DNA from: a virus
Taxonomy: Duplodnaviria; Caudoviricetes
Virus record (IMG/VR): IMGVR_UViG_3300005512_000218
Span: 1 to 30,654 of that record
Length of the DNA stretch: 30,654 nucleotides
Reading direction: 5' to 3' (one strand)
Of this stretch, positions 61 through 30,599 are shown piece by piece. The notes beneath the pieces are model-generated. The model saw only the letters and a program-made list of their open reading frames with translations. It made no database searches and had not been told where the DNA came from. The first letter of the stretch is position 1, and each line of letters opens with the position of its first letter. The position numbers and the translations under genes are program-made.

Positions 61-2025
61 TTAGGGTTGCATAGTCATAAAGCTGTCGCCTTCTTGCATC
101 GCTGCTTCGGCTGTTGCTTCGCGTTTGCGTCTTGCCATTCTGTCGGCTTCACGCTGTCTCACCTGAGACATAAGTTCTTCTTGGGTTGCAGGACGCATAT
201 CTGGGGTTGCTTCTGCTTCACCTAATTCTGTGGGTGTCATGATCATAGGCACGGCTGCAGCAGGGCCAGCAGCGGCTCCTAAAGCCCGTGCTCCTACTTC
301 TAAGCCTACATCTACAGCAGCTTGGGCAGGTTCTTGAATAGCTGAATAGATACCTGCACCGATAAGTCCGTAAGATCCTAGTTTTATACCAAACCTACTT
401 AGTTTGCTTGAAAGTTTATCAGATGGAACTTCGTCTACTTCAACATTCGTTTCTTGAATACGTGAAGCGTCTTTTTCTTCACGCACTTGTTTTTTGATGT
501 CTTGTTCACGAAGGCGACGCTCTTCCTTTGCACGGATAGCAGCTTCGTCAATCTTTGGCATCTGGGCTTCAAGACGTAAGCGTTCTGCTTCAGCTTGTGT
601 GGCAGTCAATTTCAGTTCTTGACTACGTGCTTCACGCACATCGTCGATCAAATCTAGGTCAGCATCTGTTAGCTTACCTTGAACTTGCGTACCTACGATG
701 TCTTGACCTTTAGGAATGACAGCTAGGCGGGGTGCCTCTACTGCTTCTAGTCCTGCTGCTGTGACGCCCATAGAGGCAGGTAGTTCGTTCAAGGTAGATA
801 AACCCAGAACCTCACCGTACATGTTTTGCAGGGCACGAAGGGCTTGCTTTGCCGTTGTGCCTTCCTGCGTCATAACCTGAGATACGTAGTGCTTAGAGGT
901 AATACCCTTCAAGCCTTCGATTGTATCGTCGAAGTTATCGTGACCCAAGATGGTCGATGCTTCCGGTGCGTAACCTAATTCGTTTGCAATGATTGACGGG
1001 ATAATCTTACGAATATCCTTGACACCTTCGATCTTTCGTCCCAAGATGCTTTCAAACGGTTTGAAGCGTTCGGCAATACCGCCGGGAGCCTTGACACCAG
1101 CAGTCATCTTACTAACAGTGGTATTAAAAATGTATTCCCGACCTTCTGCCCGTGCCTTTTCAGCAGCATCACGTAAAATCTCTAGAGATACTTCTGGTAT
1201 ATCCAGAGCGTTACGAATCTTGTTGCCGCGACGGTATTCGTCTGTAAACCGACCCGCTTCAAAATCAAAGTCGTCCAGTTTGATCTTGGCTACCTCACCG
1301 GGACGTAGCGGTACGAGAGCGTTGAAAGCTACGGCTGCACGAGTATCTGGGTCTTTGATTGCAGCGATACCTTCAGTCAAGGCAGGAAGAGACTGCTGTG
1401 CACCGGGGACTTGCTTAAAGACCTTTGTTTTACGGGCTTGCTTTGCCTTTTCCAAACCCATGCCACGAGCCTTACCTTCAGCCTTGAAGATATTAGGCGG
1501 TGGGGGAAGGTCGTTTGCAGCAGACATCTTTTCGATGGCTGATTGTACTGTTGCAAGAGTAGTAAAGGTAGCTTCAGAACCGACTTCGTTTAGGCTTGTA
1601 AGAAACTTGCTGTCGCCTATTGTTGACCAAGCATCGTCTAGGGATTTACCCGCAGCTTCGATTGCCTTAGTAACAGCCCCTCGCTTACCTTCCGGTCCCA
1701 TCTCAATGGCTTCACCGATGGTAAGAGTCTGATTCTTGATTTTGTCAGCAATGCTCATGCTAGGTGCGCTTTGTTGTTTTTCACGAATAGCATCGATGAC
1801 AGATGCTTTTTCTGATTTGCTAGTTAAAGGCGTTCCGATAAAATCAAAATACGCAAGTATCTGCTTATCAGTTAATTTATCAGGTACAGCAACCCTACCT
1901 GCACCCTTCTTACCACCAAACGCTTCGTACAAACCTTCATCATCTTCAGGAATAGAACCTGTGTCGATCATGTTTTGTAGATCTATGGCAGCACGTTCTA
2001 TTACATCATTTAGGTCGTCTGCCAT
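61..2025 (-). CDS. 654-aa protein with tyrosine-recombinase-superfamily catalytic core (recombinase/TopoIB/protelomerase-like), coiled coil and Gly/Ala-rich C-terminal tail
   Basis: Motifs PLRPGEV (R241), K269, KDIR (K336-R339), ILGHD (H362), SKHY (Y380); directly downstream of terL. Confidence 0.7.
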   Translation of the reverse strand: MADDLNDVIERAAIDLQNMIDTGSIPEDDEGLYEAFGGKKGAGRVAVPDKLTDKQILAYFDFIGTPLTSKSEKASVIDAIREKQQSAPSMSIADKIKNQTLTIGEAIEMGPEGKRGAVTKAIEAAGKSLDDAWSTIGDSKFLTSLNEVGSEATFTTLATVQSAIEKMSAANDLPPPPNIFKAEGKARGMGLEKAKQARKTKVFKQVPGAQQSLPALTEGIAAIKDPDTRAAVAFNALVPLRPGEVAKIKLDDFDFEAGRFTDEYRRGNKIRNALDIPEVSLEILRDAAEKARAEGREYIFNTTVSKMTAGVKAPGGIAERFKPFESILGRKIEGVKDIRKIIPSIIANELGYAPEASTILGHDNFDDTIEGLKGITSKHYVSQVMTQEGTTAKQALRALQNMYGEVLGLSTLNELPASMGVTAAGLEAVEAPRLAVIPKGQDIVGTQVQGKLTDADLDLIDDVREARSQELKLTATQAEAERLRLEAQMPKIDEAAIRAKEERRLREQDIKKQVREEKDASRIQETNVEVDEVPSDKLSSKLSRFGIKLGSYGLIGAGIYSAIQEPAQAAVDVGLEVGARALGAAAGPAAAVPMIMTPTELGEAEATPDMRPATQEELMSQVRQREADRMARRKREATAEAAMQEGDSFMTMQP

Positions 2026-2028
2026 CGA

Positions 2029-3696
2029 TTAGTATCCGAATACTTCATCTTGAACCTTGTAGACGTGGTTCTTGATTGCGCCTAGTTGTTGGTGTATAGA
2101 TGCGTAGCCACTCATGCGTGTCATTACCATATAACGCAATGCGTCGTATGCGTGATCCTCTGCCTTCGTGTCTACGTCTTCGCTATTCGTCTTTGATAGA
2201 GGTATTCCCGCAAGCTGCTTAATGGTATGCTGGCAGGTAGAAAATACTCGTAAGCGTGGTTCTTCTGTGTACGGATCATTGCCTAATCTTCTGTGGATTT
2301 CCATCTTACCTTGAATACGGTTACGGTCAGATGGTGTCCAGCGTACACCGACTCGCATCATTGTTTCTGCTATGGATGGGCCGAAACCTGTTTTGTTCCA
2401 GCACGAAGCATCTAAGACGGTATAGTGTGGTAGGGGGTCTAATTGTTCTGCTTCTATTATTTTATCAGCTAAATCTTCCGCTGTCAAGTGTTTTGCGTAC
2501 AACTCACGATAGACCCAAATATTATTATCCCAATCAATAGCACCCCAAAGAACTGCAGACGGGGACGAATAGCCATAGTCCGCTGCTCTAATGCGAGGCC
2601 AATTGGTAGGTAGTTCGAAAGGTTCGACAACGTGTCTACTCCGTGAAAACTCTGGGAAGGCCGCTCCCTCTGCCACATCCCAATCCCCCTCTAGAAGTCT
2701 CTTCCGCTCAACTTCTGGGAGCGAACGCAACATGGCTTCGTATTGTCCGTCAGCCATGAGGTGGGGATTATCAGTCAGCCGTGCAGGAACAAACTTGCGG
2801 TAGAACAACGGCTGACCTGCCTTCTCGTGACCGTTGGGCCACACAAAGGGCTTCATCGTATCTATGTCGTACGCAGGAAACGCTTCGTTTTCTGTGCGTG
2901 AGTCGATGTACATTTTCTTAACCCACCAGCCACCGACGCCGCCGGGGTTGGCTGTACAACGCATATATAGATTCTTTTGAAGTTCAGGATCTGTGGAACG
3001 TAGTCTAGAACGTAGGTAGTCCCAGACGTAAGGAGTTGGGTATTGGGTTATTTCGTCTATGCCTATCCAGTTAAAGGCTTGACCCTGAAAACGGGTAACG
3101 TCCTTGTCTCTGTCTAGGTAGGTAAACCAAATCGTGGCACCTGATGGAAAGACCCACGTTGATTTTGATTCACGGAACTTTGCTCCGGGGAACGCCTTAG
3201 TATATAATTGGCGTGACTTGTCTATTAGTTCGGTTAGTTCATCTAAGGTGCGTCTTAGAAGAAGGCCCCGGTGATTAGAGTTGTGGCAATAACGTAAGGG
3301 GTCAGCAAGTAGAGCAAACGACTTACCGCCGCCAGCCGCTCCCCCATACAATACATCTTGTTCACCTGCTGAAAGAAACTCCTCTTGAGGGCCGGGGTTA
3401 GCTTGGAAAACAACTTCAGAATCACCAACAAGGTCGGAAACGGATGGGGGTAGAATGGAGAGATCTCCCTCATCGATGACGTTTGTTCCTTTTCCAGTGA
3501 CTCCCTTTTCAACTCTTCCAATTGTTTCTTCCAGCTTTCGGGCATAACTTCTTTGTGCTTCCGCTTTCTTTGTAGCTTGTGTAGCTTTCTTCTTTGCAGC
3601 CCGTAAACGCTTCTGTGCCCCACGACGGGCACGTTCAGCGGTGGATAGCTGATAGGTTCGTTTCTTCTTTGGTGCGTCGGTTTCCGACAAGGTCAC
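2029..3696 (-). CDS. terL: Terminase large subunit
   Basis: Walker A YGGAAGGGKS, Walker B IGIDE, coupling motif TANPGG, nuclease motifs ADYG and EDHAYDALRY. Confidence 0.95.
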   Translation of the reverse strand: MTLSETDAPKKKRTYQLSTAERARRGAQKRLRAAKKKATQATKKAEAQRSYARKLEETIGRVEKGVTGKGTNVIDEGDLSILPPSVSDLVGDSEVVFQANPGPQEEFLSAGEQDVLYGGAAGGGKSFALLADPLRYCHNSNHRGLLLRRTLDELTELIDKSRQLYTKAFPGAKFRESKSTWVFPSGATIWFTYLDRDKDVTRFQGQAFNWIGIDEITQYPTPYVWDYLRSRLRSTDPELQKNLYMRCTANPGGVGGWWVKKMYIDSRTENEAFPAYDIDTMKPFVWPNGHEKAGQPLFYRKFVPARLTDNPHLMADGQYEAMLRSLPEVERKRLLEGDWDVAEGAAFPEFSRSRHVVEPFELPTNWPRIRAADYGYSSPSAVLWGAIDWDNNIWVYRELYAKHLTAEDLADKIIEAEQLDPLPHYTVLDASCWNKTGFGPSIAETMMRVGVRWTPSDRNRIQGKMEIHRRLGNDPYTEEPRLRVFSTCQHTIKQLAGIPLSKTNSEDVDTKAEDHAYDALRYMVMTRMSGYASIHQQLGAIKNHVYKVQDEVFGY

Positions 3697-3893
3697 TTCT
3701 CCGCAGATTTTGCTGCAGGGCGTCCCTTAGAGTTTGGGTTGGCTTCATTCCATTTTTTCATGCCAGCCTCAACCATTTCTTTATCGTCACCGTAAACGCG
3801 AACGAGATGATTGTACGCATCACGTCGGTTCATCGTTGTGTAGTCTGTTGCCATATCTTTTGCAGACTGGTAAATGTTTCCGAAAAATTCCAT
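3693..3893 (-). CDS. Small hypothetical protein (66 aa) ending in KGRPAAKSAEK
   Basis: ORF track; tightly packed, overlaps terL start by 4 nt. Confidence 0.7.
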   Translation of the reverse strand: MEFFGNIYQSAKDMATDYTTMNRRDAYNHLVRVYGDDKEMVEAGMKKWNEANPNSKGRPAAKSAEK

Positions 3894-3896
3894 AGG

Positions 3897-4214
3897 TTAT
3901 GCCTTATAGTTTGCTTTGCGTCCGCGACAGGCTTTGCCGCCACCTGCCATAGCTTTTCTTTTTGGTTTTGCTGTACCGCCGTACGCCATTTTTTGTTTTT
4001 TTGGTGGGATGAGTTCGTTTTTTAACTCTACGTATGACATGTCAGGATTCCTATCTATGAAACTTAAAATGCCCATTGCGTCATCTGGAGATAGATCCCG
4101 TCCTTTGAACATCTTATTCATTGTGCTGCCGTGCTTATCGTATAAACGTTCAAACCTCATGTCCAAACCTTTTATACCAAAGACGTACTTATTTGACATG
4201 GGATTTTCAGACAT
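3897..4214 (-). CDS. Small basic protein (105 aa) with MAYGG motif and C-terminal CRGRKANYKA
   Basis: ORF track; GAGG RBS upstream; C-terminal tag shared with neighbour. Confidence 0.75.
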   Translation of the reverse strand: MSENPMSNKYVFGIKGLDMRFERLYDKHGSTMNKMFKGRDLSPDDAMGILSFIDRNPDMSYVELKNELIPPKKQKMAYGGTAKPKRKAMAGGGKACRGRKANYKA

Positions 4215-4258
4215 CTACTATACCTCTATGCCTTGTAATTTGCTTTGCGTCCGCGACA
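3898..4258. repeat. 32-bp direct repeat (3898-3929 and 4227-4258) encoding CRGRKANYKA-stop
   Basis: 30/32 identical; both mismatches synonymous (AAC TAT vs AAT TAC). Confidence 0.9.
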
Positions 4259-4396
4259 CCTACCGCCCATCGCTTTAGACTTGCGTTCGTACATATTTGG
4301 TTTGATTACTTTGATCCACTGATCGTACTCTTCGTTTGTGAGTTTCGATATTTGATCACTCAGGGCAATCTTGCGAATTTCTTTATCAGTCCGCAT
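4226..4396 (-). CDS. Small protein (56 aa, MRTDKEIRK...AMGGRCRGRKANYKA), not in ORF track
   Basis: Translated by hand; overlaps terS end; fills the gap; ends in the same 10 residues as 3897..4214. Confidence 0.75.
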   Translation of the reverse strand: MRTDKEIRKIALSDQISKLTNEEYDQWIKVIKPNMYERKSKAMGGRCRGRKANYKA

Positions 4397-4790
4397 CGAT
4401 CACGACTTCCTTCTTTGGTGGCAGCAGGACTACGCCGTGCACTGCCGTTACATTGTGGTTGATTTGTTCCTGCTTTGCTACGCCGACACGGTTGAGTAGT
4501 GATTCGGCAGCTTTGAGGCGCAGGTCGTCACCTCTTTCCGGGGCGGGGTTGTCGATTGTATCGACTAATCGGTTTGCGGCTTTGAGTGCGTTGGTTGCCA
4601 AAACCGACTTGGTGCGTTCGATGATCTCATCAGCAAGCGTTGACTTGAGCCACGCTGCAGATCCACGAGAATACCCTGCATCGATGGCAGCAGCAGTTAC
4701 CTGACCACCATTTTCAAACAGAAGTTCCAAGAACTGTTCCTGTTGCGGGGTCAATTCCTTCTTTTTGTGTGTCTGGGGGAGTAGATTCAT
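4386..4790 (-). CDS. terS: Terminase small subunit
   Basis: N-terminal HTH LTPQQEQFLELL..TAAAIDAGYS typical of TerS; upstream of terL. Confidence 0.8.
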   Translation of the reverse strand: MNLLPQTHKKKELTPQQEQFLELLFENGGQVTAAAIDAGYSRGSAAWLKSTLADEIIERTKSVLATNALKAANRLVDTIDNPAPERGDDLRLKAAESLLNRVGVAKQEQINHNVTAVHGVVLLPPKKEVVIDAD

Positions 4791-4986
4791 CGTTGTTTTC
4801 CGAAACCGACTTACAGCGACTACGTATTACAACTTCGAATACCTGTCGCTCGTAAATGTACGTTGCCATTTCATCGTTTCGCAACATACACTCTTTTTCT
4901 GTGGGGTACGGACCTTCTGTGTCACGTATTTCACGGCACAAATCTGGCCCGACGGCTAGGCAGACAAGAATCCAAGATTCAAACAT
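4714..4986 (-). CDS. Hypothetical protein (90 aa, Cys-containing, hydrophobic N-terminus)
   Basis: ORF track; AAGGA RBS; first gene after the 5105-5133 promoter. Confidence 0.65.
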   Translation of the reverse strand: MFESWILVCLAVGPDLCREIRDTEGPYPTEKECMLRNDEMATYIYERQVFEVVIRSRCKSVSENNDESTPPDTQKEGIDPATGTVLGTSV

Positions 4987-5104: not shown

Positions 5105-5133
5105 AGTATACCGTCTATAACTATGTAAGTCAA
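5105..5133 (-). promoter_or_regulatory. sigma70-type promoter for the terminase operon
   Basis: TTGACT-N17-TATACT on the minus strand. Confidence 0.7.
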
Positions 5134-5194: not shown

Positions 5195-5223
5195 TTGACA
5201 AATCACGATTTGACCTATACAAT
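5195..5223 (+). promoter_or_regulatory. sigma70-type promoter, divergent, driving a short transcript
   Basis: TTGACA-N17-TACAAT with an AT-rich upstream tract (5157-5180). Confidence 0.75.
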
Positions 5224-5229: not shown

Positions 5230-5320
5230 AAGACCCACCGGGAAATAACCCAATACCACCCCGCTACCCCTACACGTCGGTTTCATACCCCTTCGGGATA
5301 CCCCGTTGGGGTCTTTTTTT
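5230..5320 (+). ncRNA. Candidate ~91-nt small RNA with paired ends, C-rich loop and U7 tail
   Basis: Predicted +1 at A5230; 5230-5242 (AAGACCCACCGGG) pairs with 5302-5315 (CCCGTTGGGGTCTT); T-run 5314-5320; no credible ORF. Confidence 0.55.
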
Positions 5321-5394
5321 GCCTAAACCCTGCCGGGGTACCCCTACACGTCGGTTGCATCCTCACCGGGGCACCCCTACACGTCGGTTTCATA
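5266..5394 (+). repeat. Three direct repeats of ACCCCTACACGTCGGTT(T/G)CAT
   Basis: Copies start at 5266, 5340 and 5373; copies 2 and 3 are preceded by CCGGGG(T/C) with a 33-bp period. Confidence 0.9.
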
Positions 5395-5733
5395 GCCATA
5401 TCGGTAATCCCCAAAATACAAAATTGCTGTCGGGATTGCATAGCATATGCCGGGGGGGTGGGGTGTCCCTTGCGTGCCCGTCAAGTCACATTTTTATCTT
5501 TCCCCATCGGTGATGCCGTGGCGCACCCATAAACTAGCCACCAAACTGAAACCGACGGGCTGATATCCCGACGGATAAACCCGCGCCCGCACCCGCCCGT
5601 GTAACCTAATTTGTCATATCTGAAATAATATGGGAGGCTTATTGATGTTACATTTACATAGAAAACCCGTACCAGTTCACCCGCAATTTATCCCGAGATA
5701 TCAAGCCCAAGCCGGATATTTCAGACGATGGGC

Positions 5734-5767
5734 AAAAAAGAACCCCGCCAGACTAGCTAAGCGGGGC
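5734..5767 (-). terminator. Rho-independent terminator ending the early/accessory block
   Basis: GCCCCGC...GCGGGGT stem followed by TCTTTTTT on the minus strand. Confidence 0.75.
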
Positions 5768-5804
5768 ATAAGTTGGGAGGAAATGCGTCGGTTCGTCGGT
5801 TTCG

Positions 5805-5915
5805 TTACTGCCGGAAATCTTCCTTTGCAAGATCCCACAGTGCCGCAAATAGGCACCAACAAGCAATCAAAACCCATGCCAGCAACACTAGCATGATCAC
5901 ACTACTGATTGTCAT
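5805..5915 (-). CDS. 36-aa single-TM membrane peptide (MTISSVIMLVLLAWVLIACWCLFAALWDLAKEDFRQ)
   Basis: Translated by hand; hydrophobic stretch; GAGG RBS; overlaps end of upstream ORF. Confidence 0.55.
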   Translation of the reverse strand: MTISSVIMLVLLAWVLIACWCLFAALWDLAKEDFRQ

Positions 5916-6147
5916 CGCTGGCCTCTTTAACTGTCAGGTTCAACCGTGCAATGGTGCGCGGGTTGTCGGTTGCATGGGTGTAATGATCAAAGCCCAAAGT
6001 TCGAAGCAATGCCTTTGCCGCCGATGCCTGTGTTTCGAGTGCTTCAATAGACTGCAAGATCAAATCGGCTTCAACTGTGGTAATAGCAACCACGCGTTTT
6101 GCGTCGGTTTCGAAATTGTCTTTATTCAGTGAAATTGTGCTTTTCAT
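5902..6147 (-). CDS. Hypothetical protein (81 aa, MKSTISL...)
   Basis: ORF track 5902..6276 trimmed to ATG 6147 with AAGGAACC RBS. Confidence 0.65.
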   Translation of the reverse strand: MKSTISLNKDNFETDAKRVVAITTVEADLILQSIEALETQASAAKALLRTLGFDHYTHATDNPRTIARLNLTVKEASDDNQ

Positions 6148-6229
6148 TTTGTTGGTTCCTTCTTTGTCGGTTTCAAGTGAGACTGGCAACACCGCGCCGC
6201 CAGCCCCAATATTGTTAGTCGGTTTCGAA

Positions 6230-6619
6230 TTAGCTTGCAAGCTTGTATTTAGGCAAGCGATATCCCCGCCGGACACTCACGATTTCGTAACCATGCCCCC
6301 GCAACCGATGAATGGCGTTTTGCACCGCCTTTCTATCGCATCCAGTTTCGCGGCAAAGCGTGTTGATATTGACGCCATGTTTACGGCTGGCAAGCGTCCG
6401 GTAGATTCGGGCAAGCGGAGAATTCGCACGGAATGGCCGCTTATCTTTGCCCCGCTGCCCCCGCTGCCGTTTGACTGGTTCGAGGCTTTCCCCGTGCATC
6501 CCCGTCTGGAAATCAAACTCAGCTTTGAACCGCTGATATAAGTCCTGCTTTACGTCGGCACGGACAGCAGACACAAGTTGGTTGCAAAGCTCTTTGATGT
6601 GTTCGTTGTTGGTTGTCAT
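6230..6619 (-). CDS. Winged helix-turn-helix DNA-binding protein
   Basis: C-terminal INTLCRETGCDRKAVQNAIHRLRGHGYEI...GYRL resembles BirA/HTH_11-type wHTH; AAAGGAACC RBS. Confidence 0.75.
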   Translation of the reverse strand: MTTNNEHIKELCNQLVSAVRADVKQDLYQRFKAEFDFQTGMHGESLEPVKRQRGQRGKDKRPFRANSPLARIYRTLASRKHGVNINTLCRETGCDRKAVQNAIHRLRGHGYEIVSVRRGYRLPKYKLAS

Positions 6620-6645
6620 AGTTCTGGTTCCTTTCCCAGCGTTGA

Positions 6646-6738
6646 TTAAAAGGTGATAAAAGCGATCAATAGCGTAATCAACAAAACCGCCAAGATCATA
6701 CGATACACAAGATAAAATATTTCTAGTTTGTCGTTCAT
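6646..6738 (-). CDS. 30-aa membrane peptide (MNDKLEIFYLVYRMILAVLLITLLIAFITF)
   Basis: Starts 1 nt after the DUF932-like gene stop; hydrophobic. Confidence 0.5.
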   Translation of the reverse strand: MNDKLEIFYLVYRMILAVLLITLLIAFITF

Positions 6739-6739
6739 T

Positions 6740-7753
6740 CTATGCCGCCAGCCCCTCAAGATATAGCCATGACGGTGACGTGATAACGTTCCGCACGTCC
6801 TCGTTTCGTTTACGCTGCACCATATGCTGGCTCTGTGTATTCTTGCCAGTCTGCCGGTCAACGCCATCCGCGCCAGTCCATGTGACGTTTGTATGGGTTG
6901 ACCAATGGGTCAGAGCATTATAAGCCGCCCACATGGTCGCGCCTAGTTCCTGCTTTTCAGCGTTGAATTGGTGCATCAAGTAATTGAACAAACGTTCGTT
7001 GACTGGTTTAACCTTGCCTTGTTCGGCTGCTGCCCCAGATTTATAGCAAACGGTTTGCGCCAAGATATCCCCGAATTGTTCATCCGATAATTTCGCACCC
7101 CGCCACAATTGCATCTGGTCAAGCTGGTTTTCCCACATAGACAAACCCATTGCCGCCTTGCTGATAAGCGCGGTTGGCTCTAAGTTTTTGGTGTGTTTTG
7201 CCCGTTGGTGGTAAGCTTTTTCCCCGCCGAAAACTAGCGTATTGCGGCACAGGTCACGATAAGCCCCACTGAATATCTGGAAAGCCCAACTCATATCAAT
7301 GCTGTTGAAGATATCCATGCGGCAGACAACATTGTCCTGTTTTTCACCGACGCCATGCTGCAAGTCTAAAAAATGCACGGTTCTATGAGCACGCAGCCCC
7401 CCGTCGTAGATTCTATCCATGACCGCAACATTGCTAGTCGGCAAGTCGGTTGCACCCAAGACATCGGCATGATTGGCGAATAATTCATCATGCGGCACAA
7501 GCTTATAGCTGGAACCGACAGGCCGGGTCTTTAATACTTCCCCGGTTGCGGTATTCTGCAAAGCTGAATAATCCGGCATCGGCTGATACTCGCACAATTC
7601 GACATCACTATAATGTTGAGCGGTCACCGCCTCAATTGGCACCCGCCGCACAGAACCCATATCTTGAAAAATAGATATGTCGGCAATGTTGTTGTGTTCA
7701 TAGACGGTCGCGCCGCCCTCGTTTTTGTATTCAGGTTGGATTAAGTCAAACAT
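6740..7753 (-). CDS. DUF932-like phage/plasmid protein (337 aa)
   Basis: Motifs VGSSYKLVPH, FNSIDMS..FQIFSGAYRDLCRN, HTKN, MWAAYNALTHWSTH; start 7753 from AAAGGAACC RBS. Confidence 0.75.
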   Translation of the reverse strand: MFDLIQPEYKNEGGATVYEHNNIADISIFQDMGSVRRVPIEAVTAQHYSDVELCEYQPMPDYSALQNTATGEVLKTRPVGSSYKLVPHDELFANHADVLGATDLPTSNVAVMDRIYDGGLRAHRTVHFLDLQHGVGEKQDNVVCRMDIFNSIDMSWAFQIFSGAYRDLCRNTLVFGGEKAYHQRAKHTKNLEPTALISKAAMGLSMWENQLDQMQLWRGAKLSDEQFGDILAQTVCYKSGAAAEQGKVKPVNERLFNYLMHQFNAEKQELGATMWAAYNALTHWSTHTNVTWTGADGVDRQTGKNTQSQHMVQRKRNEDVRNVITSPSWLYLEGLAA

Positions 7754-7831
7754 GTGTTCGGTTCCTTTCGTTGATTGAACAAATATAGTTAAAACAGAAA
7801 TTGACCGCACAGGCAAATAAAAAATGCACAC

Positions 7832-7861
7832 AAAAAACGGGGCGGAAAATCTCCCGCCCCG
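7832..7861 (-). terminator. Rho-independent terminator after the Gp88-like gene
   Basis: CGGGGCGGGA-GATT-TTCCGCCCCG followed by T6. Confidence 0.75.
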
Positions 7862-7977
7862 CCCCGATGGATCAGCCCCCAACTCAACTGATCCGATGAT
7901 GCCACCGCCGCCAGTAAAACCAACAAACCGATGCGGCATAGCATCCCAAAACATTTAGTGTCGCCCCGTTTGTCACG

Positions 7978-8664
7978 TTAGTGGGTTTGAAATAAAACCT
8001 GCACATAGTCTGCCGCCCAGCATATCGTACAAGTCGCGCACGATTCGGTTTTGCCCGTTTGTTCTGGACAAATTACCGATTTGTTTTTTGCTGGCTTAAT
8101 TAGGTCGGCACTATTTGCGCTGAATTGCCATTCCGGCGCATTGCTGAACCGCACCGCGAATCTTTCCCCGAATCCGCCCCGCACGGCACGAATAGCCAAA
8201 CCGATATCACTTGTCGGTTTGTATCCGGTAAATCCCCAGATGGCTAAATTGTCAAACTTGGTCAACAGGTGCTGCCACAGTTCGACATAATCAACCGAAT
8301 AGAAATCGCCCAGCACATGCAGCCGGATAATCACCCCGCGATAAAGTCCGCAAAGTTCCGCAACTTCTTTTTGCAAAGCGGCTTCAAGTTCTGCCCCGTG
8401 CTGGATGCGATGCCCGAACATCATATTATTGCCGTAGCAATCATCCCAATGATAGCAATAGCGGGGACAGGTTGCTCGTTCCTCTAATGTCAAAGTATAA
8501 ATCACATAGCCTTTAAACTTGCCTTTTTTGATTACGGGCAATTTATCTTTGCTTAGCTTTTTATTTTTAGATTGTTTCAAAACCGATTTGGATTCGGCAA
8601 CCGTGCGTCGGCTTTTTGGATACATGGTCGCGGCGGGTTTGTTTATATCAGCTTTTTTCATCAT
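7978..8664 (-). CDS. Gp88-like Cys-rich protein (probable Fe-S/radical-SAM-like)
   Basis: TCPRYCYHWDDCYG (Cx3Cx5C), IRLHVLGDF, C-terminal CPEQ...CATCTICW; start trimmed to ATG 8664 (GGGGGA RBS). Confidence 0.7.
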   Translation of the reverse strand: MMKKADINKPAATMYPKSRRTVAESKSVLKQSKNKKLSKDKLPVIKKGKFKGYVIYTLTLEERATCPRYCYHWDDCYGNNMMFGHRIQHGAELEAALQKEVAELCGLYRGVIIRLHVLGDFYSVDYVELWQHLLTKFDNLAIWGFTGYKPTSDIGLAIRAVRGGFGERFAVRFSNAPEWQFSANSADLIKPAKNKSVICPEQTGKTESCATCTICWAADYVQVLFQTH

Positions 8665-8809
8665 ATCCCCCTGCGTCCAAAATAGCCCAATACTGATCAA
8701 AAGTGTAAACTTGTTTTTCGGTTTCAACTTCTGCGGGATAAAATCCAAAATTAGCAAAATGATCGCCTACAAAATCCGATATCATCAAAAATTCTTTATC
8801 GCGTTGCAT
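8648..8809 (-). CDS. Hypothetical protein (53 aa, MQRDKEF...FGFYPAEVETEKQVYTFDQYW), not in ORF track
   Basis: Translated by hand; TAATG coupling to the upstream gene; fills the gap. Confidence 0.6.
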   Translation of the reverse strand: MQRDKEFLMISDFVGDHFANFGFYPAEVETEKQVYTFDQYWAILDAGGYDEKS

Positions 8810-9066
8810 TAGCTATACACCCCGCTTATCAAAGTGACCTTGCCACCCTTTTCACATTGCACGGGTGCCTCTGTTTCTATCCAAACACGGGCACCACATG
8901 ATAACGGTTTATCAGGTGAATAAACAACATTAGACGCGCCGCGAATCTCGACACGGTCGGCATAGATATTGCGATTGCTAGTTTTAATTGTGATTACAGG
9001 ATCGGTTGTCCCGTTCTTTTTATTTGCACGAATGACGTGCTGATTAATGTGTATACGTTTTTTCAT
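8809..9066 (-). CDS. Hypothetical phage protein (KRIHINQHVI...SPDKPLSCGARVWIET)
   Basis: ORF track trimmed to ATG 9066 with AAAGGAACC RBS; sequence type recalled from other phages. Confidence 0.75.
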   Translation of the reverse strand: MKKRIHINQHVIRANKKNGTTDPVITIKTSNRNIYADRVEIRGASNVVYSPDKPLSCGARVWIETEAPVQCEKGGKVTLISGVYS

Positions 9067-9102
9067 TTGGTCGGTTCCTTTTCGTTTGTCGGTTTGCAAA
9101 CG

Positions 9103-9297
9103 TTACGGATAAAATCCGCGATGGTCAAGCGGTTTTATTTTGGCACCCTGCTTTTTTAGATAACATTTAGGACAGTAAAATAAATTATCTACATAGACCA
9201 TCGACGGTTTACCGCAATCATAGCACGGATAATCTCTTGATAGTGTGGTTCGTTTGTCAGGTGTTTGTCTAGAAATTTGGTGTGTATAATTTGCCAT
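9103..9297 (-). CDS. Small zinc-ribbon protein
   Basis: CYDC...CPKC; start uncertain. Confidence 0.55.
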   Translation of the reverse strand: MANYTHQISRQTPDKRTTLSRDYPCYDCGKPSMVYVDNLFYCPKCYLKKQGAKIKPLDHRGFYP

Positions 9298-9472
9298 GTT
9301 GCACCATTTGTCTCAGTGTTACCAGTTTGTCACGTTGCGCTTTTGTCACGGGTTTGCCATGCCAGTCAGCGTCACTGATTTGTCTGTTTAGTGTCCGCCA
9401 TTTGTCAGCCACGTTTGTCAGGCGTGGGTCGCTTGCCTTGTCAGGATACACAGGGTCAATATAGAAGTTCAT
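9269..9472 (-). CDS. Hypothetical protein (67 aa) overlapping the TTTGTC cluster
   Basis: ATGA overlap with upstream ORF. Confidence 0.55.
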   Translation of the reverse strand: MNFYIDPVYPDKASDPRLTNVADKWRTLNRQISDADWHGKPVTKAQRDKLVTLRQMVQHGKLYTPNF

Positions 9473-9675
9473 CGTTTGTCTGCCCAAAAGTTATCCCAAG
9501 TTTCCCGCATCAATTCGCCAAGTTCGTTGTCAGTGAAATGCGCCATCAGGTCACGGTGTGGTTCCATCTGTTGCATAAACTCACCGACAAACTCACAACC
9601 CCCGATGATTGATCCGGCAATGTCAAACCATTTGTCTTCGTTGTCCATTGCCAATGCTTTCATCTTGCCCATCAT
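9469..9675 (-). CDS. Hypothetical protein (68 aa)
   Basis: ORF track; GAGGTG RBS; coupled to neighbours. Confidence 0.65.
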   Translation of the reverse strand: MMGKMKALAMDNEDKWFDIAGSIIGGCEFVGEFMQQMEPHRDLMAHFTDNELGELMRETWDNFWADKR

Positions 9676-9866
9676 TACACCTCACCTATTTCGTATATGT
9701 CATAATCAAACGTATCAATGTAATCTGAAACAATCAACCTATTTATCAACGGGTCTAGCTTGAATGCTTCGATAGCCATCCTCTTTGCTTCATCCTCGCT
9801 ATCAGCCCCAATAGGTACACGGGCTGAAACCGACGCAACAACATCAACTACAAATTTTCTTTTCAT
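9675..9866 (-). CDS. Hypothetical protein (63 aa)
   Basis: ORF track; AAGGAAG RBS. Confidence 0.65.
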   Translation of the reverse strand: MKRKFVVDVVASVSARVPIGADSEDEAKRMAIEAFKLDPLINRLIVSDYIDTFDYDIYEIGEV

Positions 9867-10014
9867 TGTTCGCTTCCTTCATCATCAGTTCAGCAATTCT
9901 ATTAGAGACAGGACGATTGCCTGTCAACTTGATTCGTCCCATGCGGTCGTACACAGGTTCAATCTCTAGGATTTGTAAGTCCCGCTTCAGTTCCTTGAAT
10001 GTCGGTACGTTCAT
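9844..10014 (-). CDS. Hypothetical protein (56 aa, MNVPTFKELKRDL...), not in ORF track
   Basis: Translated by hand; AAGGAAACCGACG-ATG start context. Confidence 0.5.
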   Translation of the reverse strand: MNVPTFKELKRDLQILEIEPVYDRMGRIKLTGNRPVSNRIAELMMKEANNEKKICS

Positions 10015-10710: not shown

Positions 10711-10716
10711 TCTCCC

Positions 10717-10953: not shown

Positions 10954-10986
10954 CGTTCGTTCCCTTCATTGATTAACGATACATAA

Positions 10987-11015
10987 CCAATATCGGTTAC
11001 AAAACATCCTGTCAA
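10987..11015 (-). promoter_or_regulatory. Putative sigma70 promoter for the early block
   Basis: TTGACA-N17-TATTGG immediately after a terminator T-tract. Confidence 0.5.
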
Positions 11016-11016
11016 C

Positions 11017-11056: not shown

Positions 11057-11081
11057 TCCCCAACCAACGAACGAAACAACC

Positions 11082-11753: not shown

Positions 11754-11760
11754 TTGTGAC

Positions 11761-12561
11761 ATGAAATCACCGAACTGGCTAAAAGGTTATGTTGAGTCGC
11801 TGGACATCCAGCCGTTGGGACGCTATCGGTCTGACTGTCCTGTGTGTGGCAAGTCGAATACGTTTAGCGTAACCGACGATGGATTGCAACGCATGTGGTT
11901 TTGTTTTCATGCGGACTGCAACGTGTCTGGTCGAACAGGCATAGTCTTATCTAAAGATTTTGCAAAGATTGCAATCAAGAAACCGACGCCTAGTGTTGCA
12001 CCTGCCGCACCGGATAAGTTTGTTATTCCTGATACATTTACCAGTCTTTCCAGAAACTTAGACGCCGAACTTTATGTAAGATCTGTACATGCCTACGATG
12101 CGTATTTGTCTGGTCGTGCAGATATACGGTACGATTTCAAACGTAATCGTGTAGCTTACCTTGTTAAACATGAAGGCAAGGTAGTCGATGCGGTCGGTCG
12201 ATCATTAGATGGAAGAGGGGCGAAATGGTACAGGTATGGAAACAGCAAACTACCTTTTGTTTGTGGTAGTGGGGATGTTGGAATTGTTGTGGAAGATTGT
12301 GCTTCTGCTTGCGCTGTTTGCGGCGTTTCGACGGGCATAGCTTTACTGGGAACCAATCTATTAGACGAACACATAGATTTTTTATCCAAGTACAAAAGGA
12401 TTTTTGTCGCGCTTGACAAAGATGCAACCGACAAAGCACTTGACATGGTAAAGATTCTATGTAGAAAAATACCGACGCGATTGATGGTACTTGATCGTGA
12501 TTTAAAAAACCTAAACAACGAGGAACGAGATGAGTTCATACGATCCCATATCAATAGATAA
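11761..12561 (+). CDS. DNA primase (T7-like zinc-binding domain plus TOPRIM)
   Basis: CPVC...FCFHADC zinc finger; IVVED and ALDKDA TOPRIM motifs; start trimmed to ATG 11761. Confidence 0.9.
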   Translation: MKSPNWLKGYVESLDIQPLGRYRSDCPVCGKSNTFSVTDDGLQRMWFCFHADCNVSGRTGIVLSKDFAKIAIKKPTPSVAPAAPDKFVIPDTFTSLSRNLDAELYVRSVHAYDAYLSGRADIRYDFKRNRVAYLVKHEGKVVDAVGRSLDGRGAKWYRYGNSKLPFVCGSGDVGIVVEDCASACAVCGVSTGIALLGTNLLDEHIDFLSKYKRIFVALDKDATDKALDMVKILCRKIPTRLMVLDRDLKNLNNEERDEFIRSHINR

Positions 12562-14467: not shown

Positions 14468-15048
14468 ATATATTAACCTTTGACGTGGAAACAACCCACA
14501 TCTACAAGGATAGTGGCGGCACTACTGCCCTGCCATACTTTGGAAACCGACTCGTATCTATCGGGTACAAGCGTCTGTCTTCACCCTATATACACTACCA
14601 CTGCTACTACCACGCAGACAGGCAAGCCCACGACTTTGCACCTGAACTTTTTCAAGAGGCACTTGACGAAGCCGATGTAGTTGTGGGACAAAACATAAAG
14701 TTTGATTTATCTTGGATACGGGAATGCGGGTTTGTTTACGACGGTGACATCTATGATACGATGGTGGCGGAATATATTTTATCGAAAGCCCAGCGTTGGC
14801 CTCTTGGACTTGCTGCTCTTGCAGAAAAGTATGACGTTACCCGCAAGGAGAAAGACCTTGTTGAGCCGTATCTTAAAAGCGGTAAAACATTCTACGATAT
14901 ACCGTGGGAGATAGTAGAAGAGTACGGTAAAGCTGACGTACTTGCTACAGAAGAAATTGCAGTTAAACAGCTTGAAGCCTTTGGCACTACCTTTGAGGAA
15001 CTATATAATGCAGCGGACTTTACTACCAACCTTGAGACTGTCGCTTGA
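14464..15048 (+). CDS. 3'-5' proofreading exonuclease domain of family A DNA polymerase, encoded as a separate ORF
   Basis: ExoI FDVET, ExoII GQNIKFDL, DTMVAEY, ExoIII YGKADV. Confidence 0.88.
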   Translation: MNILTFDVETTHIYKDSGGTTALPYFGNRLVSIGYKRLSSPYIHYHCYYHADRQAHDFAPELFQEALDEADVVVGQNIKFDLSWIRECGFVYDGDIYDTMVAEYILSKAQRWPLGLAALAEKYDVTRKEKDLVEPYLKSGKTFYDIPWEIVEEYGKADVLATEEIAVKQLEAFGTTFEELYNAADFTTNLETVA

Positions 15049-16549
15049 GATGACAGACGTTCTGGCTCGTATGGAGCGGAACGGATTGAAGATTAACTTA
15101 GATACCCTAGAAGATATCCGACAGGAATACCAACAGGAAATGGATGAACTTGAGGTTCGCCTAGAACGCCTTGCACGGGACGCTATGGGGGATACCCCTG
15201 TCAACCTGTCCAGTCCCGATGACAGAAGCGTGTTGCTCTATTCACGGCGTGTTAAAGATAAGAAGGCATGGTCGCGCGTGTTCAACTTGGGACACGAGAT
15301 GCGCGGCAACACAATGAAGCCTAAGATGCGTACACGGATGAAGCGCGGCGAGTTCAAGTCTGCCGTAAAGAACATGACGGATGTTGTGTACAAGACACGG
15401 GGTCAGCAGTGCGATGAGTGTAGGGGCGAGGGTCGGTTTCATCCACGCAAGAAAGATGGCACGATAGGAAAGGCTGTGCGTGTCTGTAAGCGGTGTGACG
15501 GGGCTGGTGTTCTTTATATACCTACACGAGAGGTAGCCGGATTCAAGCTGATACCTCGTGACCCAATGGACACAGCATCGGCGGGGTTCAAGACAGACAA
15601 GGTTACGTTAGAAAACCGACAAACCGACTTGTCTGGTGATGCCCACGAGTTCGTTGTAGCCTATGTTCGCTACAGTGCGTTGCGTACTTACCTGTCAACT
15701 TTTGTAGAAGGAATGAAGAATAATGTTGACGAAAATAGTTTCATCCATCCAGAGTTCATGCAATGTATTACGGCAACGGGTCGCCTTTCGAGTCGCAATC
15801 CTAACTTTCAGAATATGCCGCGTGGAAGTACCTTCGCTATACGGAAGGTTGTCGAGAGCCGCTTCACGGGCGGTTTTATACTTGAAGGGGATTACTCGCA
15901 ACTAGAGTTCAGGGTGGCTGGTTTCCTGTCTAAAGACGGACAAGCCTACATCGATGTGAAGGATGGTACAGATGTTCACAGCTATACTGCAAGTGTTATC
16001 GGATGCACACGTCAAGAAGCAAAGGCGCACACGTTCAAACCTTTGTATGGTGGTGTCAGCGGTACAGAAAACCAGCAACGCTATTACCGTGCGTTTAAAG
16101 AAAAGTATGAGGGCGTTACTGAGTGGCACAAGGAACTGCAGAAAGAAGCAGTGCGAACCAAAGTAATTACATTGCCCAGCGGCAGACAATACGCTTTCCC
16201 ATCTGCACGTTGGACTGAGTGGGGTACAGCTACAAATCGTACGGCTATCTGTAACTATCCAGTACAGGGATTTGCAACAGCCGACTTGTTGCCAGCCGCA
16301 TTGGTTCGCCTAGATAAGATGATGCGATCAAGAAAATTAAATTCTGTAATCTGCAACACAGTGCACGATTCGATTGTATTGGATGTACACCCAGATGAAA
16401 AAGAGGCTTGCATCAACCTATTAGCCTATGCTATGCAGAGTTTACCTGAAGAAACAGTTAATCGGTATGGTGTCGAGTATGACATGCCTGTCGGAATAGA
16501 ATTAAAAATAGGCAAAAATTGGCTTGACTCAGAAGAAATAGAACTGTAA
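15008..16549 (+). CDS. polA: Family A DNA polymerase catalytic part with DnaJ-type zinc-finger insertion
   Basis: TATGRLSSRNPNFQN, motif A DYSQLEFR, motif B RQEAKAHTFKPLYG, motif C VHDS; CDECRGEG and CKRCDGAG; GAGGA RBS before ATG 15008. Confidence 0.92.
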   Translation: MQRTLLPTLRLSLEMTDVLARMERNGLKINLDTLEDIRQEYQQEMDELEVRLERLARDAMGDTPVNLSSPDDRSVLLYSRRVKDKKAWSRVFNLGHEMRGNTMKPKMRTRMKRGEFKSAVKNMTDVVYKTRGQQCDECRGEGRFHPRKKDGTIGKAVRVCKRCDGAGVLYIPTREVAGFKLIPRDPMDTASAGFKTDKVTLENRQTDLSGDAHEFVVAYVRYSALRTYLSTFVEGMKNNVDENSFIHPEFMQCITATGRLSSRNPNFQNMPRGSTFAIRKVVESRFTGGFILEGDYSQLEFRVAGFLSKDGQAYIDVKDGTDVHSYTASVIGCTRQEAKAHTFKPLYGGVSGTENQQRYYRAFKEKYEGVTEWHKELQKEAVRTKVITLPSGRQYAFPSARWTEWGTATNRTAICNYPVQGFATADLLPAALVRLDKMMRSRKLNSVICNTVHDSIVLDVHPDEKEACINLLAYAMQSLPEETVNRYGVEYDMPVGIELKIGKNWLDSEEIEL

Positions 16550-21669: not shown

Positions 21670-21833
21670 ACTGTTGGCATTGTAGTTACAACTTGACTTG
21701 GGGCGGTGACCATGATACGGATGATGATCCAGATCATTCTATGGTCACCAACCTTAGTTGTGCCAACTGTGGCTCGTTTGTTTTAGTCTATTTACCCAGA
21801 GAAGAAGATGATACAAATAAAAATAACTCCTAG
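21666..21833 (+). CDS. Small zinc-ribbon protein (55 aa, MNCWHC..WGGDHD..SCANCG), not in ORF track
   Basis: Translated by hand; ATGA overlap with nrdJ stop; two CxxC. Confidence 0.75.
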   Translation: MNCWHCSYNLTWGGDHDTDDDPDHSMVTNLSCANCGSFVLVYLPREEDDTNKNNS

Positions 21834-22296
21834 CATCATTGCCCGTGCCAAAAAGAAAGCCGCCTCTGTAGGTAATCTACAGGGCAGCATAACGGGTAGT
21901 CTATCTAATGTTGTCGGTGCTATTGGTGAGATTATCGTACAGGATTACACTGGCGGTATCGAAGCCAACAGCAAAGACTTTGACTTGATGGTAGGAAACC
22001 GACGTGTTGACGTAAAGACTAAGCGGTGCAACACAACCCCTTCACCTAACTACGATTGTTCTGTGGCGGCACACGGTACGAAACAAGACTGCGATAGCTA
22101 CGTGTTTGTTCGTATCCTTACCGACCACAGCAAGGCGTGGATCTTGGGTGAGATACCTAAAGCAGACTATTACAAGAAGGCAATCAAATATAAGGTAGGT
22201 GATGTTGATCCTGCCAACGGCTTTGTTTTCAAGGCTGACTGTTATAACCTAGCAATACAAGAACTAGAGACTGTCAATGGCAAAGAAGCAGCATAA
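21808..22296 (+). CDS. Restriction-endonuclease-fold (PD-(D/E)XK) hypothetical protein
   Basis: GAIGE...DFDL..RVDVKTK. Confidence 0.65.
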   Translation: MIQIKITPSIIARAKKKAASVGNLQGSITGSLSNVVGAIGEIIVQDYTGGIEANSKDFDLMVGNRRVDVKTKRCNTTPSPNYDCSVAAHGTKQDCDSYVFVRILTDHSKAWILGEIPKADYYKKAIKYKVGDVDPANGFVFKADCYNLAIQELETVNGKEAA

Positions 22297-22503: not shown

Positions 22504-22668
22504 CTATTTCTTTTTCTTTTTGTGTTCCTTGATTATTTCGAATCGTGCATTCAAGAACGAACCCCGATGACGCTTGTAACCGTCTTTGGGGTTTTTCATT
22601 AGGACAAACTCTTTGCCTTGCTTCATCCAGTGATAGCCCTCTGGGGCACGAACAACTTTTCTAGCCAC
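22504..22668 (-). CDS. Small basic protein (54 aa, ..RAPEGYHWMK..KKKKK), not in ORF track
   Basis: Translated by hand; GTG start overlapping the upstream gene end; fills the gap to the convergence point. Confidence 0.65.
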   Translation of the reverse strand: MARKVVRAPEGYHWMKQGKEFVLMKNPKDGYKRHRGSFLNARFEIIKEHKKKKK

Positions 22669-22987
22669 GATTCTTAGCCTTTCCCCCGTACATCATGTAG
22701 CCCATCTTATTTCGTACAGGTTTTGGTAATTTACCTAGACCCTTGTTGTCTGCGGGTACAGGTTTCAGGCTTGCCATACCACCTTCTGCCATGCTCATAG
22801 ACAGGGGTGGTTGCATCGTCGGTTTCATTTTCTGTGGCTGCATCATCGGATTCGATGACATCATGCCGCCCATCTGTGCCTTTTTACGGGGCTTGGTTGC
22901 CGTGCCGCCGTACATCATAGGTTTGCGACGGGTTGCACCGCCATACATCATACCCTTGCGTGGGCCGTTATGGTACTGCTTTTTCAT
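22661..22987 (-). CDS. Basic Met/Gly-rich protein with repeated MMYGG/MAEGG motifs (108 aa)
   Basis: ORF track trimmed to ATG 22987 (AGGAG upstream); five GG motifs. Confidence 0.7.
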   Translation of the reverse strand: MKKQYHNGPRKGMMYGGATRRKPMMYGGTATKPRKKAQMGGMMSSNPMMQPQKMKPTMQPPLSMSMAEGGMASLKPVPADNKGLGKLPKPVRNKMGYMMYGGKAKNRG

Positions 22988-27644: not shown

Positions 27645-27653
27645 ACTAATTCC

Positions 27654-30032: not shown

Positions 30033-30035
30033 AGC

Positions 30036-30599
30036 TTACTCCGCCTCTTCCATAGTCGGTTTCATGTTCATAAAGTTTTCTTCTTGTGGCTCTTCTGGAA
30101 TGTAGCCACTACGAATGTCTTCGTTAATCTTTTCACGGATAACAGAGAACATACCCGGATTGTTTTGCTTCATCATACGGAAGAAGGTTTCGTCATCCAT
30201 CTCATCTTTTTCAAGTTCGTTGTCGTTTTCAAAGAAACGGTACGGAATACCTTCCTCTTCAGCCATACCCGCAACAACCATCGCAAGAGGGGCTTTGATC
30301 AGCATACCGACATCCGGTGTGAATTGACCTTCGGAGAATGCCTGAAAAATGTATCCTTCGACAAGCACCTCAACCGACGCGCCGACAATCAACAGCTTCA
30401 TCAATTCACGCTTGTTCTTTTTGCGGTTTAGCTTAGTTATAGCAGCTTGCAAAGCCTGTTGCGGGTCAACAATCTGTGGGGGTTGTCCCCACGGCCACTG
30501 TTGATTGTCGGTTGTTAGGCCGTATCCCGGGGGTGCCATTGCAAACGGGTCTTTTGCCTCTATGCTACCACGAGGGGCTTGTGACGGATCTATTTTCAT
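30036..30599 (-). CDS. Conserved virion-module protein (187 aa)
   Basis: APPGYGLT...WPWGQPPQ motif recalled from marine podovirus structural modules; GGGAG RBS. Confidence 0.65.
   Translation of the reverse strand: MKIDPSQAPRGSIEAKDPFAMAPPGYGLTTDNQQWPWGQPPQIVDPQQALQAAITKLNRKKNKRELMKLLIVGASVEVLVEGYIFQAFSEGQFTPDVGMLIKAPLAMVVAGMAEEEGIPYRFFENDNELEKDEMDDETFFRMMKQNNPGMFSVIREKINEDIRSGYIPEEPQEENFMNMKPTMEEAE

Follow-up and report, generated by a model that had tools for sequence, protein, structure and literature searches.

The virus record IMGVR_UViG_3300005512_000218, a sequence of 30,654 bases analysed here in full (the window), carries the heptamer AACCGAC (GTCGGTT on the opposite strand) in large excess, and related phages carry other words of the same kind at the corresponding places. 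The word is real, is under selection and is swapped between lineages. No description of it was found in the literature searched, subscription papers and supplements lying outside the scope of that search, and in the accessible part of the paper on the HMO-2011-type phages (PMC9038755) the term 'motif' refers to CXXCXGXG only. Gene content places the window among HMO-2011-like marine podoviruses, in a clade without a close isolate in the phage collection. We favour, with a probability of roughly 45 %, the reading that AACCGAC is the lineage-specific binding site of a double-stranded-DNA-binding protein, probably phage-coded, which would build a phased complex at a packaging or replication end and would also use the copies dispersed elsewhere.

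A dispersed heptamer in excess of codon-aware expectation

An original prediction, made by inspection of the sequence, had described about 50 copies of the word, quoted 28 coordinates, set them against a base-composition expectation of 3-4 and proposed a selected cis-acting code. All 28 coordinates are exact sites, and the full set is larger:

1247..30513, both strands, all frames: dispersed AACCGAC/GTCGGTT sites, n = 57, about one per 540 bp

A second-order Markov model predicts 4.0 such sites, against the 57 present (25 on the plus strand, 32 on the minus strand; z 26.5). The enrichment of about 14-fold ranks AACCGAC first among the 7-mers of the window. All seven positions count, because each of the 21 single-mismatch variants is present in only 0-11 copies. 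The longer consensus that had also been proposed was not confirmed, the flanks being weak: T at -3 in 22, G at -2 in 33, A at -1 in 33 and G at +7 in 26 of the 57 sites.

Counts at coding sites rest on a set of 43 open reading frames (ORFs) of the window. Forty-five sites are coding and are spread over the three frames of both strands, so that the placement in every frame that had been claimed extends to six frame-strand classes. Synonymous-codon shuffles retained 4.6±2.1 coding sites (maximum 13 in 1000) and whole-codon shuffles 2.8±1.6, so the excess survives the codon-shuffled as well as the Markov null models. The supposed two-thirds preference for the coding strand is absent (24 sense, 21 antisense). 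Twelve sites were scored as intergenic, four of which (5787, 5795, 10016 and 10117) lie inside small ORFs outside the 43-ORF set. The density peak noted at 5.2-6.2 kb is present, with ten sites in 5276-6218; the other 47 of the 57 sites fall outside it.

Selection at the sites

Conservation at synonymous sites, another check put forward with the original prediction, was measured in 225 related loci aligned to the window, 163 of which were kept after duplicate removal, with the expectation matched for base. Because the word itself sets the classes and the loci share ancestry, the counts are not independent. In 18 close same-class loci, fourfold-degenerate positions inside sites differed in 23 of 304 comparisons where 59.9 were expected, a 2.6-fold reduction; in 35 distant loci of that class they differed in 155 of 392, against 190 expected. 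The 67 loci of other classes showed no constraint at these positions (342 of 530 differing, 284 expected). Many AACCGAC sites turn over among relatives and a few are nearly fixed. These include sites 5276 (28 of 28 class loci) and 5383 (23 of 24) in the element described below, together with the following:

4804..4810, + strand: site adjoining the start of terS, upstream of it; kept in 29/29 AACCGAC-class loci and 0/5 others (AACCAAC in 2)
14545..14551, + strand: coding site in the polymerase exonuclease ORF; kept in 21/23 class loci and 2/22 others
15614..15628, + strand: tandem coding sites in the DNA polymerase; 15614 kept in 29/29 class loci and 1/36 others
21997..22003, + strand: coding site (Asn-Arg) in ORF 21808-22296; kept in 14/14 class loci, with AACAAAC (Asn-Lys) in 5/9 others

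The word overrides protein sequence: polymerase residue Q227, encoded at the 15614-15628 sites, is present in 30 of 32 class sequences against 1 of 41 others, and Asn-Arg at 21997 gives way to Asn-Lys in five of nine loci of other classes. That the word is a functionless by-product of codon use, repeats or mutation bias has very little left to recommend it and is already largely refuted by the codon-shuffle and constraint results. Some sites do lie in the spacers of ribosome-binding sites, a setting in which similar A-rich words are frequent, but an excess that is ten-fold over synonymous shuffles and spans six frame-strand classes, the synonymous constraint and the in-register swaps between lineages all speak against it. 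The same codon-aware excess, constraint and swapping support the selected cis-acting code that had been proposed.

Related lineages use other words

Words of related lineages are AACGAAC, CGCGAAC, AATCGGAG, CGCGTAC and AACGTAC, all of which end in A-C/G. Across the 136 loci of the first two scans AACCGAC was common to many, and others were topped by AACGAAC, CGCGAAC, AACGTAC, AATCGGA or CGCGTAC; the AACGAAC-topped loci have a 91 % identical polymerase. In a survey of 178 loci in 35 primase clusters, a strong word (z ≥ 7) was found in 12 clusters, 11 of which fall into six classes: AACCGAC with five clusters, CGCGAAC with two, and AATCGGA(G), CGCGTAC, AACGTAC and AACGAAC with one each. The twelfth has TCCCGGA in 10 copies, outside the six-class pattern, and the remaining 23 clusters, many of them made up of short loci, showed no strong word. 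All six strong classes are asymmetric 7-8-mers with an A-C or A-G end.

Three relatives (G013, L083 and L113) have an early block 95-97 % like that of the window on a distant backbone. They use CGCGAAC and keep a few AACCGAC remnants in the early block, which argues that the word goes with the replication and late backbone, or with the host, and not with the early genes. None of seven cultured relatives has a comparable word (top z 5.8-9.5 against 22 for the window at the same Markov order). The word GGTGGTGG of HTVC033P was considered as Chi-like and rejected, as it is a Gly-rich coding repeat on one strand. Among unrelated viral loci picked for triple sites from 11 of the 64 parts of the viral collection, 79 of 120 were long enough to score and showed no dispersed enrichment.

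A conserved element upstream of terS

The sites are densest around a conserved element next to the gene of the terminase small subunit; the element and its surroundings are as follows:

4386..4790, - strand: terminase small subunit (TerS), neighbour of the element, with a helix-turn-helix (HTH) region common to four word classes
5105..5133, - strand: predicted sigma70-like promoter match TTGACT-17-TATACT, toward the terS/terL late operon
5195..5223, + strand: near-consensus sigma70 promoter match TTGACA-17-TACAAT (11/12) that opens the element; similar match at 63/83 terS loci
5257..5397, - strand: three 34-nt direct repeats, each with the word (5276, 5350, 5383), spaced by 74 and 33 bp (7.05 and 3.14 turns)
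5300..5320, + strand: terminator-like hairpin and T-run, directly after the first site
5397..5409, + strand: conserved anchor that registers the element; promoter-to-anchor distance in ~10.5-bp steps at 61 loci
5452..5463, + strand: G-run; a G- or C-run variant in 61/83 terS loci
5480..5730, no strand assigned: hypervariable stretch with a pile-up of contig ends, holding site 5550 (+); probable genome end or terminal redundancy
5734..5766, - strand: terminator-like hairpin that ends the leftward early genes and converges on the rightward terminator; conserved anchor
5787..6224, - strand: six same-strand sites (5787, 5795, 5965, 6103, 6166, 6218)

The two promoter matches, ending at 5133 (-) and starting at 5195 (+), are divergent. 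The slot occupied by the repeats at 5257..5397 is the place where other lineages have their own word: registered by the anchor, the slots hold GTCGGTT, GTTCGTT, GTTGGTT, GTTGTTT, GTTCGCA or CTCCGAT according to lineage. As a separate observation, the strong promoter at 5195 and the nearby terminator would yield an RNA of ~90 nt (5230-5320, + strand) with one copy of the word; it has no Rfam match.

The element is probably the genome end, as judged from contig ends, deposited ends and zones free of GCWGC. Contig ends are most numerous in the 5500-5999 bin (19, with six true ends at 5658-5684), in a set of loci partly fetched via TerS. The deposited genomes of HTVC103P and HTVC115P end 797 and 589 bp upstream of terS. 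In four relatives the GCWGC-free zones stop at the element, and in the deposited HMO-2011 and HTVC033P they lie at the left end. Two of four sequencing runs show a depth peak at 5306-5606, which is not counted here as evidence. The window itself has 6.5 kb without GCWGC (8319-14811) and 64 sites elsewhere, and similar zones of its relatives extend to the terS-proximal element.

Helical phasing and polarity

Spacings within the element follow the helical repeat. At the 61 distinct loci in which promoter and anchor are both present, the gaps from site to site group at 22, 33, 72-76, 85-87, 95-97 and 106 bp, 36 of 49 gaps lying within 0.2 turn of an integer, 7 at 0.2-0.3 and 6 beyond. Promoter-to-anchor distances (26 distinct values) cluster at about 152, 173, 184, 194, 204 and 214 bp. 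The best period in a 7-15 bp scan was 10.5 for the former and 10.5-10.6 for the latter, with Rayleigh p of ~0.002 and ~0.0001 respectively, calculated on distinct values that are not independent. The sequence of the inserted units varies from lineage to lineage. In the window, the gaps of 74, 33, 178, 138, 63 and 52 bp correspond to 7.05, 3.14, 16.95, 13.14, 6.0 and 4.95 turns, so that all six same-strand gaps of 20-250 bp in the cluster fall within 0.15 turn; counted from 5795 instead, the third gap becomes 170 bp (16.2 turns) and all six fall within 0.2 turn. The 404-bp gap across the presumed end is out of phase. Such phasing points to a complex on double-stranded DNA, and because the element steps by ~10.5 bp we favour a double-stranded-DNA binder over a Chi or primase signal.

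AACCGAC also points at the element from both sides, its orientation flipping again near the gap between the ribbon-helix-helix (RHH) gene and the primase gene. In the left arm the ratio is 14:5 in the window and 7:0, 6:1 and 8:0 in G005, G006 and G009; over the rest of the genome it is 21:6, 20:7, 18:8 and 18:7 in G005, G006, G009 and G014, and near even in the long arm of the window (20:18) and in G002 (19:13). Polarity is real in one subclade and is not required.

Such polarity would fit a host signal, either a Chi-like signal for AddAB or a KOPS-like one for a translocase, which the phage would collect to protect its ends and to promote recombination. The word points to the element from both sides (in the left arm of the window and in the rest of G005, G006 and G014), its density peaks at the end that would probably enter the cell first, and a host-coded reader would explain why no phage gene covaries with it. 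We nevertheless consider this origin quite improbable. The long arm of the window lacks polarity, the sampled Alphaproteobacteria show no excess of the word, and the 79 unrelated viral loci, drawn from 11 of the 64 parts of the collection, show no dispersed enrichment. Chi is read during unwinding and needs no phasing. The original prediction had listed a host Chi-like signal among its candidates; that idea loses ground to the helical phasing and to the absence of any excess in the bacteria sampled, among which the real host may be missing.

Candidate readers in the phage

The proteins first put forward as readers, namely a protein of the winged helix-turn-helix type (wHTH; 6230-6619), an RHH protein (11317-11523) and the recombinase, do not track the word across classes. 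The wHTH types are common to several word classes, and near-identical RHH proteins occur with different words (L011 against L024 and L025). The recombinase-like slot is hypervariable, with 57 distinct ORFs, needs 10 changes for 7 states and is shuffled across classes. TerS was the best candidate at first and was overturned by finer classes: the same HTH region occurs with four slot words, so that TerS is not the determinant of specificity. The variable loop of TerL was rejected because its sequence is common to different word classes, and the nuclease-like ORF 21808-22296 because it too is common to different classes. Column-level and nearest-neighbour scans gave no clean reader, several of the top columns being the motif itself.

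The recombinase-like gene deserves a description of its own. It is a tyrosine-recombinase-like late gene (61-2025, - strand) in the slot after terL, represented in relatives by the 57 distinct ORFs of 538-851 amino acids, which form ten or more deep types with 11-22 % core identity that are shuffled between lineages. Catalytic-looking R, K, R, H and Y residues are visible in the copy of the window. HMO-2011 and HTVC033P have the portal in its place. The product may be an injected end-joining or resolving enzyme; the 654-residue ORF had no sequence match in the PDB.

A further candidate, a weak one, is the primase:

11755..12561, + strand: primase (Zn-binding domain and Toprim), weakest-case candidate reader with the best but imperfect covariation

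In trees of 21-24 loci the primase needs the fewest class changes (6 for 7 states, against 7 or 8 for other genes), although the trees of the polymerase and of DUF7831 tie with it under one coding. The helix after its zinc domain reads DFAK[IL]A[IM]KK in 17 of 17 distinct AACCGAC-enriched sequences, one of them mixed. Loci L050 and L413, which have the AACCGAC word with a helix like that of the N class, are exceptions to this rule, and the zinc domain is nearly identical in the GTC and GTT classes. A single-sequence model of the primase was unusable (predicted local distance difference test score, pLDDT, 39.6).

These data bear on the proposal that the word is an unusually long phage primase site, 5'-GT-C-GGTT-3' on the lagging-strand template (primer pppAC), with the element as origin and the genome enriched to about one priming site per kb per strand. 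T7 primase recognises 5'-(G/T)2GTC-3', a short single-stranded site present in surplus, to which 3' flanks can add specificity (PMC12839067). An invariant (G/C)T at the slot words, with T at position 2 after G or C, fits T7 5'-GTC-3' initiation, and bases 3' of the T7 site act through K57, just after the zinc domain (PMC12839067). The matching helix is what tracks class best, the primase tree stands at the minimum of class changes, and the sites converge on the element as lagging-strand sites around an origin would. We hold the proposal to be improbable all the same, since primases read single-stranded DNA and need no helical phasing. The residues that we take to be equivalent to T7 D31 and H33 do not change between the GTC and GTT classes, L050 and L413 break the helix rule, and a single step separates the primase from other genes. 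On each strand the sites are for the most part no more evenly spaced than random: 4 of 21 tests gave p<0.05 for low variance or a short maximum gap, clustered in related genomes, and even spacing is not claimed. Beyond the shared GTC at the 5' end of one strand, AACCGAC differs from T7 primase sites in its seven sharp positions, its enrichment and its helically phased element.

Host side and modification

The strongest rival holds that the word is the target of a host N6-adenine (m6A) methyltransferase of the MmeI/type IIG or BREX kind, whose sites would be kept for dense methylation and would shift with the host; a conserved reader, either terminase or host defence, would then sense the methyl mark and not the exact word. 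Dam-dependent P1 pac offers an analogy for the reading of a methyl mark. The asymmetric 7-8-mers with an A-C or A-G end resemble MmeI-family sites, for which reason the modification target listed in the original prediction stays a candidate. The rival would also account for a constant TerS beside a changing slot, for the lack of a tracking phage gene and for the use of one word in five primase clusters. Enrichment is not easily explained in this way, because phages usually lose such sites, as with CCWGG, of which there are 0 copies in 16 contigs (the window and G002-G016). No methyltransferase was found in 128 phage ORFs, comprising 49 from the window and 79 from the missing half in relatives, and enzymes that vary from strain to strain would seem too unevenly distributed to mould a clade found worldwide. 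On balance we regard a methyltransferase target as unlikely, if still worth serious attention.

In candidate hosts, where enrichment had been proposed as a test, the scan covered 401 genomes of the class of a metagenome-assembled genome (MAG) labelled Parvibaculum sp. (G256 and G056 were counted in the tally only). The scanned class is Alphaproteobacteria, because GcrA was present in four of five genomes checked. None of the 401 exceeded ~0.26 AACCGAC sites per kb as read from the table, against 1.9 in the window; four of the densest stood at Markov expectation in samples of 58-102 kb. Word density was alike in 28 genomes of one family, none above ~0.26 per kb, and a family of 13 genomes reached via a phage MsmA-like gene had no clear excess. 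The expected enrichment was thus absent from the sampled Alphaproteobacteria, and the true host may be outside the sample.

Certain observations touch on host range. The MAG labelled Parvibaculum sp. contains a related phage contig (L210:812-2314; polymerase 67 %, CGCGAAC 6 against 0.7 expected), which may be a mis-bin or a hint at the host. CCWGG is absent as well from HMO-2011 (first 50 kb), CRP-738 and HTVC115P, and has 54 copies in HTVC033P; a SAR116 host deduced from its absence was rejected because CRP-3, CRP-738 and HTVC115P likewise lack it. A family of alphaproteobacterial genomes of ~2 Mb (L261-L280; G346, G215 and G034) strongly avoids CCAGG (1 against 82, 6 against 114 and 5 against 65 expected) and also partly avoids GCAGC, as the phages do.

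A proposed binding protein

In the favoured reading, a sequence-specific double-stranded-DNA-binding protein, probably from the replication and late backbone, would read AACCGAC. The phased sites of the promoter-repeat element, lying on one face of the helix, would build a nucleoprotein complex that starts replication or passes concatemers to the terminase, and the ~45 copies elsewhere would act as places of loading or as a self label separating phage from host DNA. When the specificity of the reader changes, the slots of the element would be rewritten first to the new word, and then the whole genome. What the data establish is the excess, the constraint, the in-register swapping and the 10.5-bp steps; that a protein binds, what it does, where the genome ends and that the phage encodes the reader are deduced.

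Several points weigh against this reading. No phage gene tracks the word cleanly, with tail and head genes thinly sampled for covariation; no more than one parsimony step separates primase, Pol, endonuclease I and DUF7831, and AU tests left every grouping standing, a single origin included. The DUF7831 model (pLDDT 85.2) matched only other DUF7831 proteins and no DNA-binding fold (best PDB Z 5.8), and a search of the Atlas gave no usable match for it. The phasing set consists of related loci, so its p-values are optimistic; phasing spans the whole element, the promoter and terminator included, and may reflect another complex than that of the word's reader. Sites elsewhere are only weakly phased (10 of 18 same-strand and 6 of 21 opposite-strand gaps), and some class genomes have stretches of 5-10 kb without a site on one strand. 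The genome end is itself deduced. A binding protein does not account for the A-C/G end common to the classes.

A bolder version of the binding-protein reading makes the word a private, swappable DNA identity code, present in helical phase at the genome end and scattered over every gene, in which one factor admits only self DNA to replication and packaging or protects it against nucleases that the phage itself encodes; we put this forward as a tentative idea that is somewhat doubtful. The weight that remains goes to other host DNA-binding proteins or drive-like processes.

Gene content and layout of the phage

The window encodes a terminase, primase, DnaB helicase, family A polymerase with a DnaJ zinc insert, Cas4-like exonuclease, endonuclease I and class II ribonucleotide reductase (RNR). 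Its closest database matches are HTVC033P, the CRP roseophages and HMO-2011, at 28-48 % identity, and the sequencing runs that contain parts of it are marine, estuarine or salt-marsh metagenomes. HMO-2011-type phages have a family A polymerase with a DnaJ insert of two CXXCXGXG motifs (PMC9038755). The same insert is found in the window (PF00684 at Pol ORF 152-191, both motifs visible), and the likeness extends to helicase, primase, RNR and endonuclease I. It differs from the isolates in a polymerase identity of only 38-48 %, a polymerase in two ORFs, a reversed early block and a recombinase-like gene after terL.

The polymerase is split into an exonuclease ORF (14464-15048, +) and a polymerase ORF (15008-16549, +) that overlap by ~40 nt in different frames; this is not an assembly error, because the same split was found in L039 (9950-10160). 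The early block (5902-11523, -) runs leftward to the probable left end, opposite to its direction in HMO-2011 and HTVC033P, and has been transferred between lineages as one unit (G013, L083, L113). Small basic late ORFs at 3693-4396 and 22504-22972 (-), with common M(M/A)YGG / MAGGG repeats and varying in number among relatives, possibly encode DNA-condensing core proteins. One relative (G003, L216:2361-3446) has a ring-hydroxylating alpha subunit resembling HMO-2011 MsmA, with 72 % identity over 253 amino acids to a gene in genome G192.

Relation to known systems and meaning

Among described systems the closest in appearance are the stoperators of cluster A mycobacteriophages such as L5 and Bxb1, 13-14 bp sites present in 20-30 copies per genome, which follow the direction of transcription and bind an immunity repressor that co-evolves with them (PMC6550527). 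They too are asymmetric sites dispersed genome-wide, including in genes, with a consensus that varies by lineage and syntenic sites that change in step. AACCGAC differs in being a sharp 7-mer with weak flanks in 57 copies over 31 kb, in lacking orientation in genes (24 sense, 21 antisense), in having RHH and wHTH proteins that do not track it where stoperators have their repressor, and in its phased array at the probable end. At lambda cosB and SPP1 pac, TerS reads sites that occur at a single locus, repeated in a geometry-sensitive arrangement at the packaging end and adjoining the terminase genes (PMC4856287). The present element resembles them in its repeated array, its 10.5-bp stepping and its place beside terS, at what is probably a packaging end; AACCGAC is by contrast genome-wide, and TerS stays constant when the word changes.

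MmeI-family (type IIL) sites are short asymmetric words that vary except for a penultimate adenine followed by C or G (PMC2731913). A penultimate A is present in six of six classes here. BREX sites are short asymmetric words of the same penultimate-adenine kind; compared with both, AACCGAC is enriched ~14-fold and not avoided. Chi, KOPS and DNA uptake sequences are likewise short, asymmetric and over-represented, show some polarity and can take precedence over protein sequence, and they are signals of host chromosomes. Of the genomes examined, only those of the phage clade are enriched for AACCGAC, and phages whose polymerases are 91 % identical differ in their word. We file it as a variant of dispersed phage cis-codes and as a member of none of the systems compared.

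Phages of the HMO-2011 type belong to the most abundant viruses of the sea (PMC9038755). The finding means that a genome-wide word in such a clade is under selection strong enough to alter polymerase residues. In lytic double-stranded DNA phages, recognition of self against host or rival DNA is usually attributed to a single pac or cos site; an identity code of the kind outlined above would be a dispersed self signal for a tailed double-stranded DNA phage, in which lineages that change the word would no longer be compatible with one another and would recast their genomes, down to amino acids, a possible path to phage speciation. If the reader is instead a host enzyme, the word would be a host-assignment marker for an uncultured clade and a case of phages that accumulate modification sites and do not lose them. 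At least six natural specificity classes with matching slots form a comparative set for the search for the reader and for the study of how a protein-DNA code diverges.

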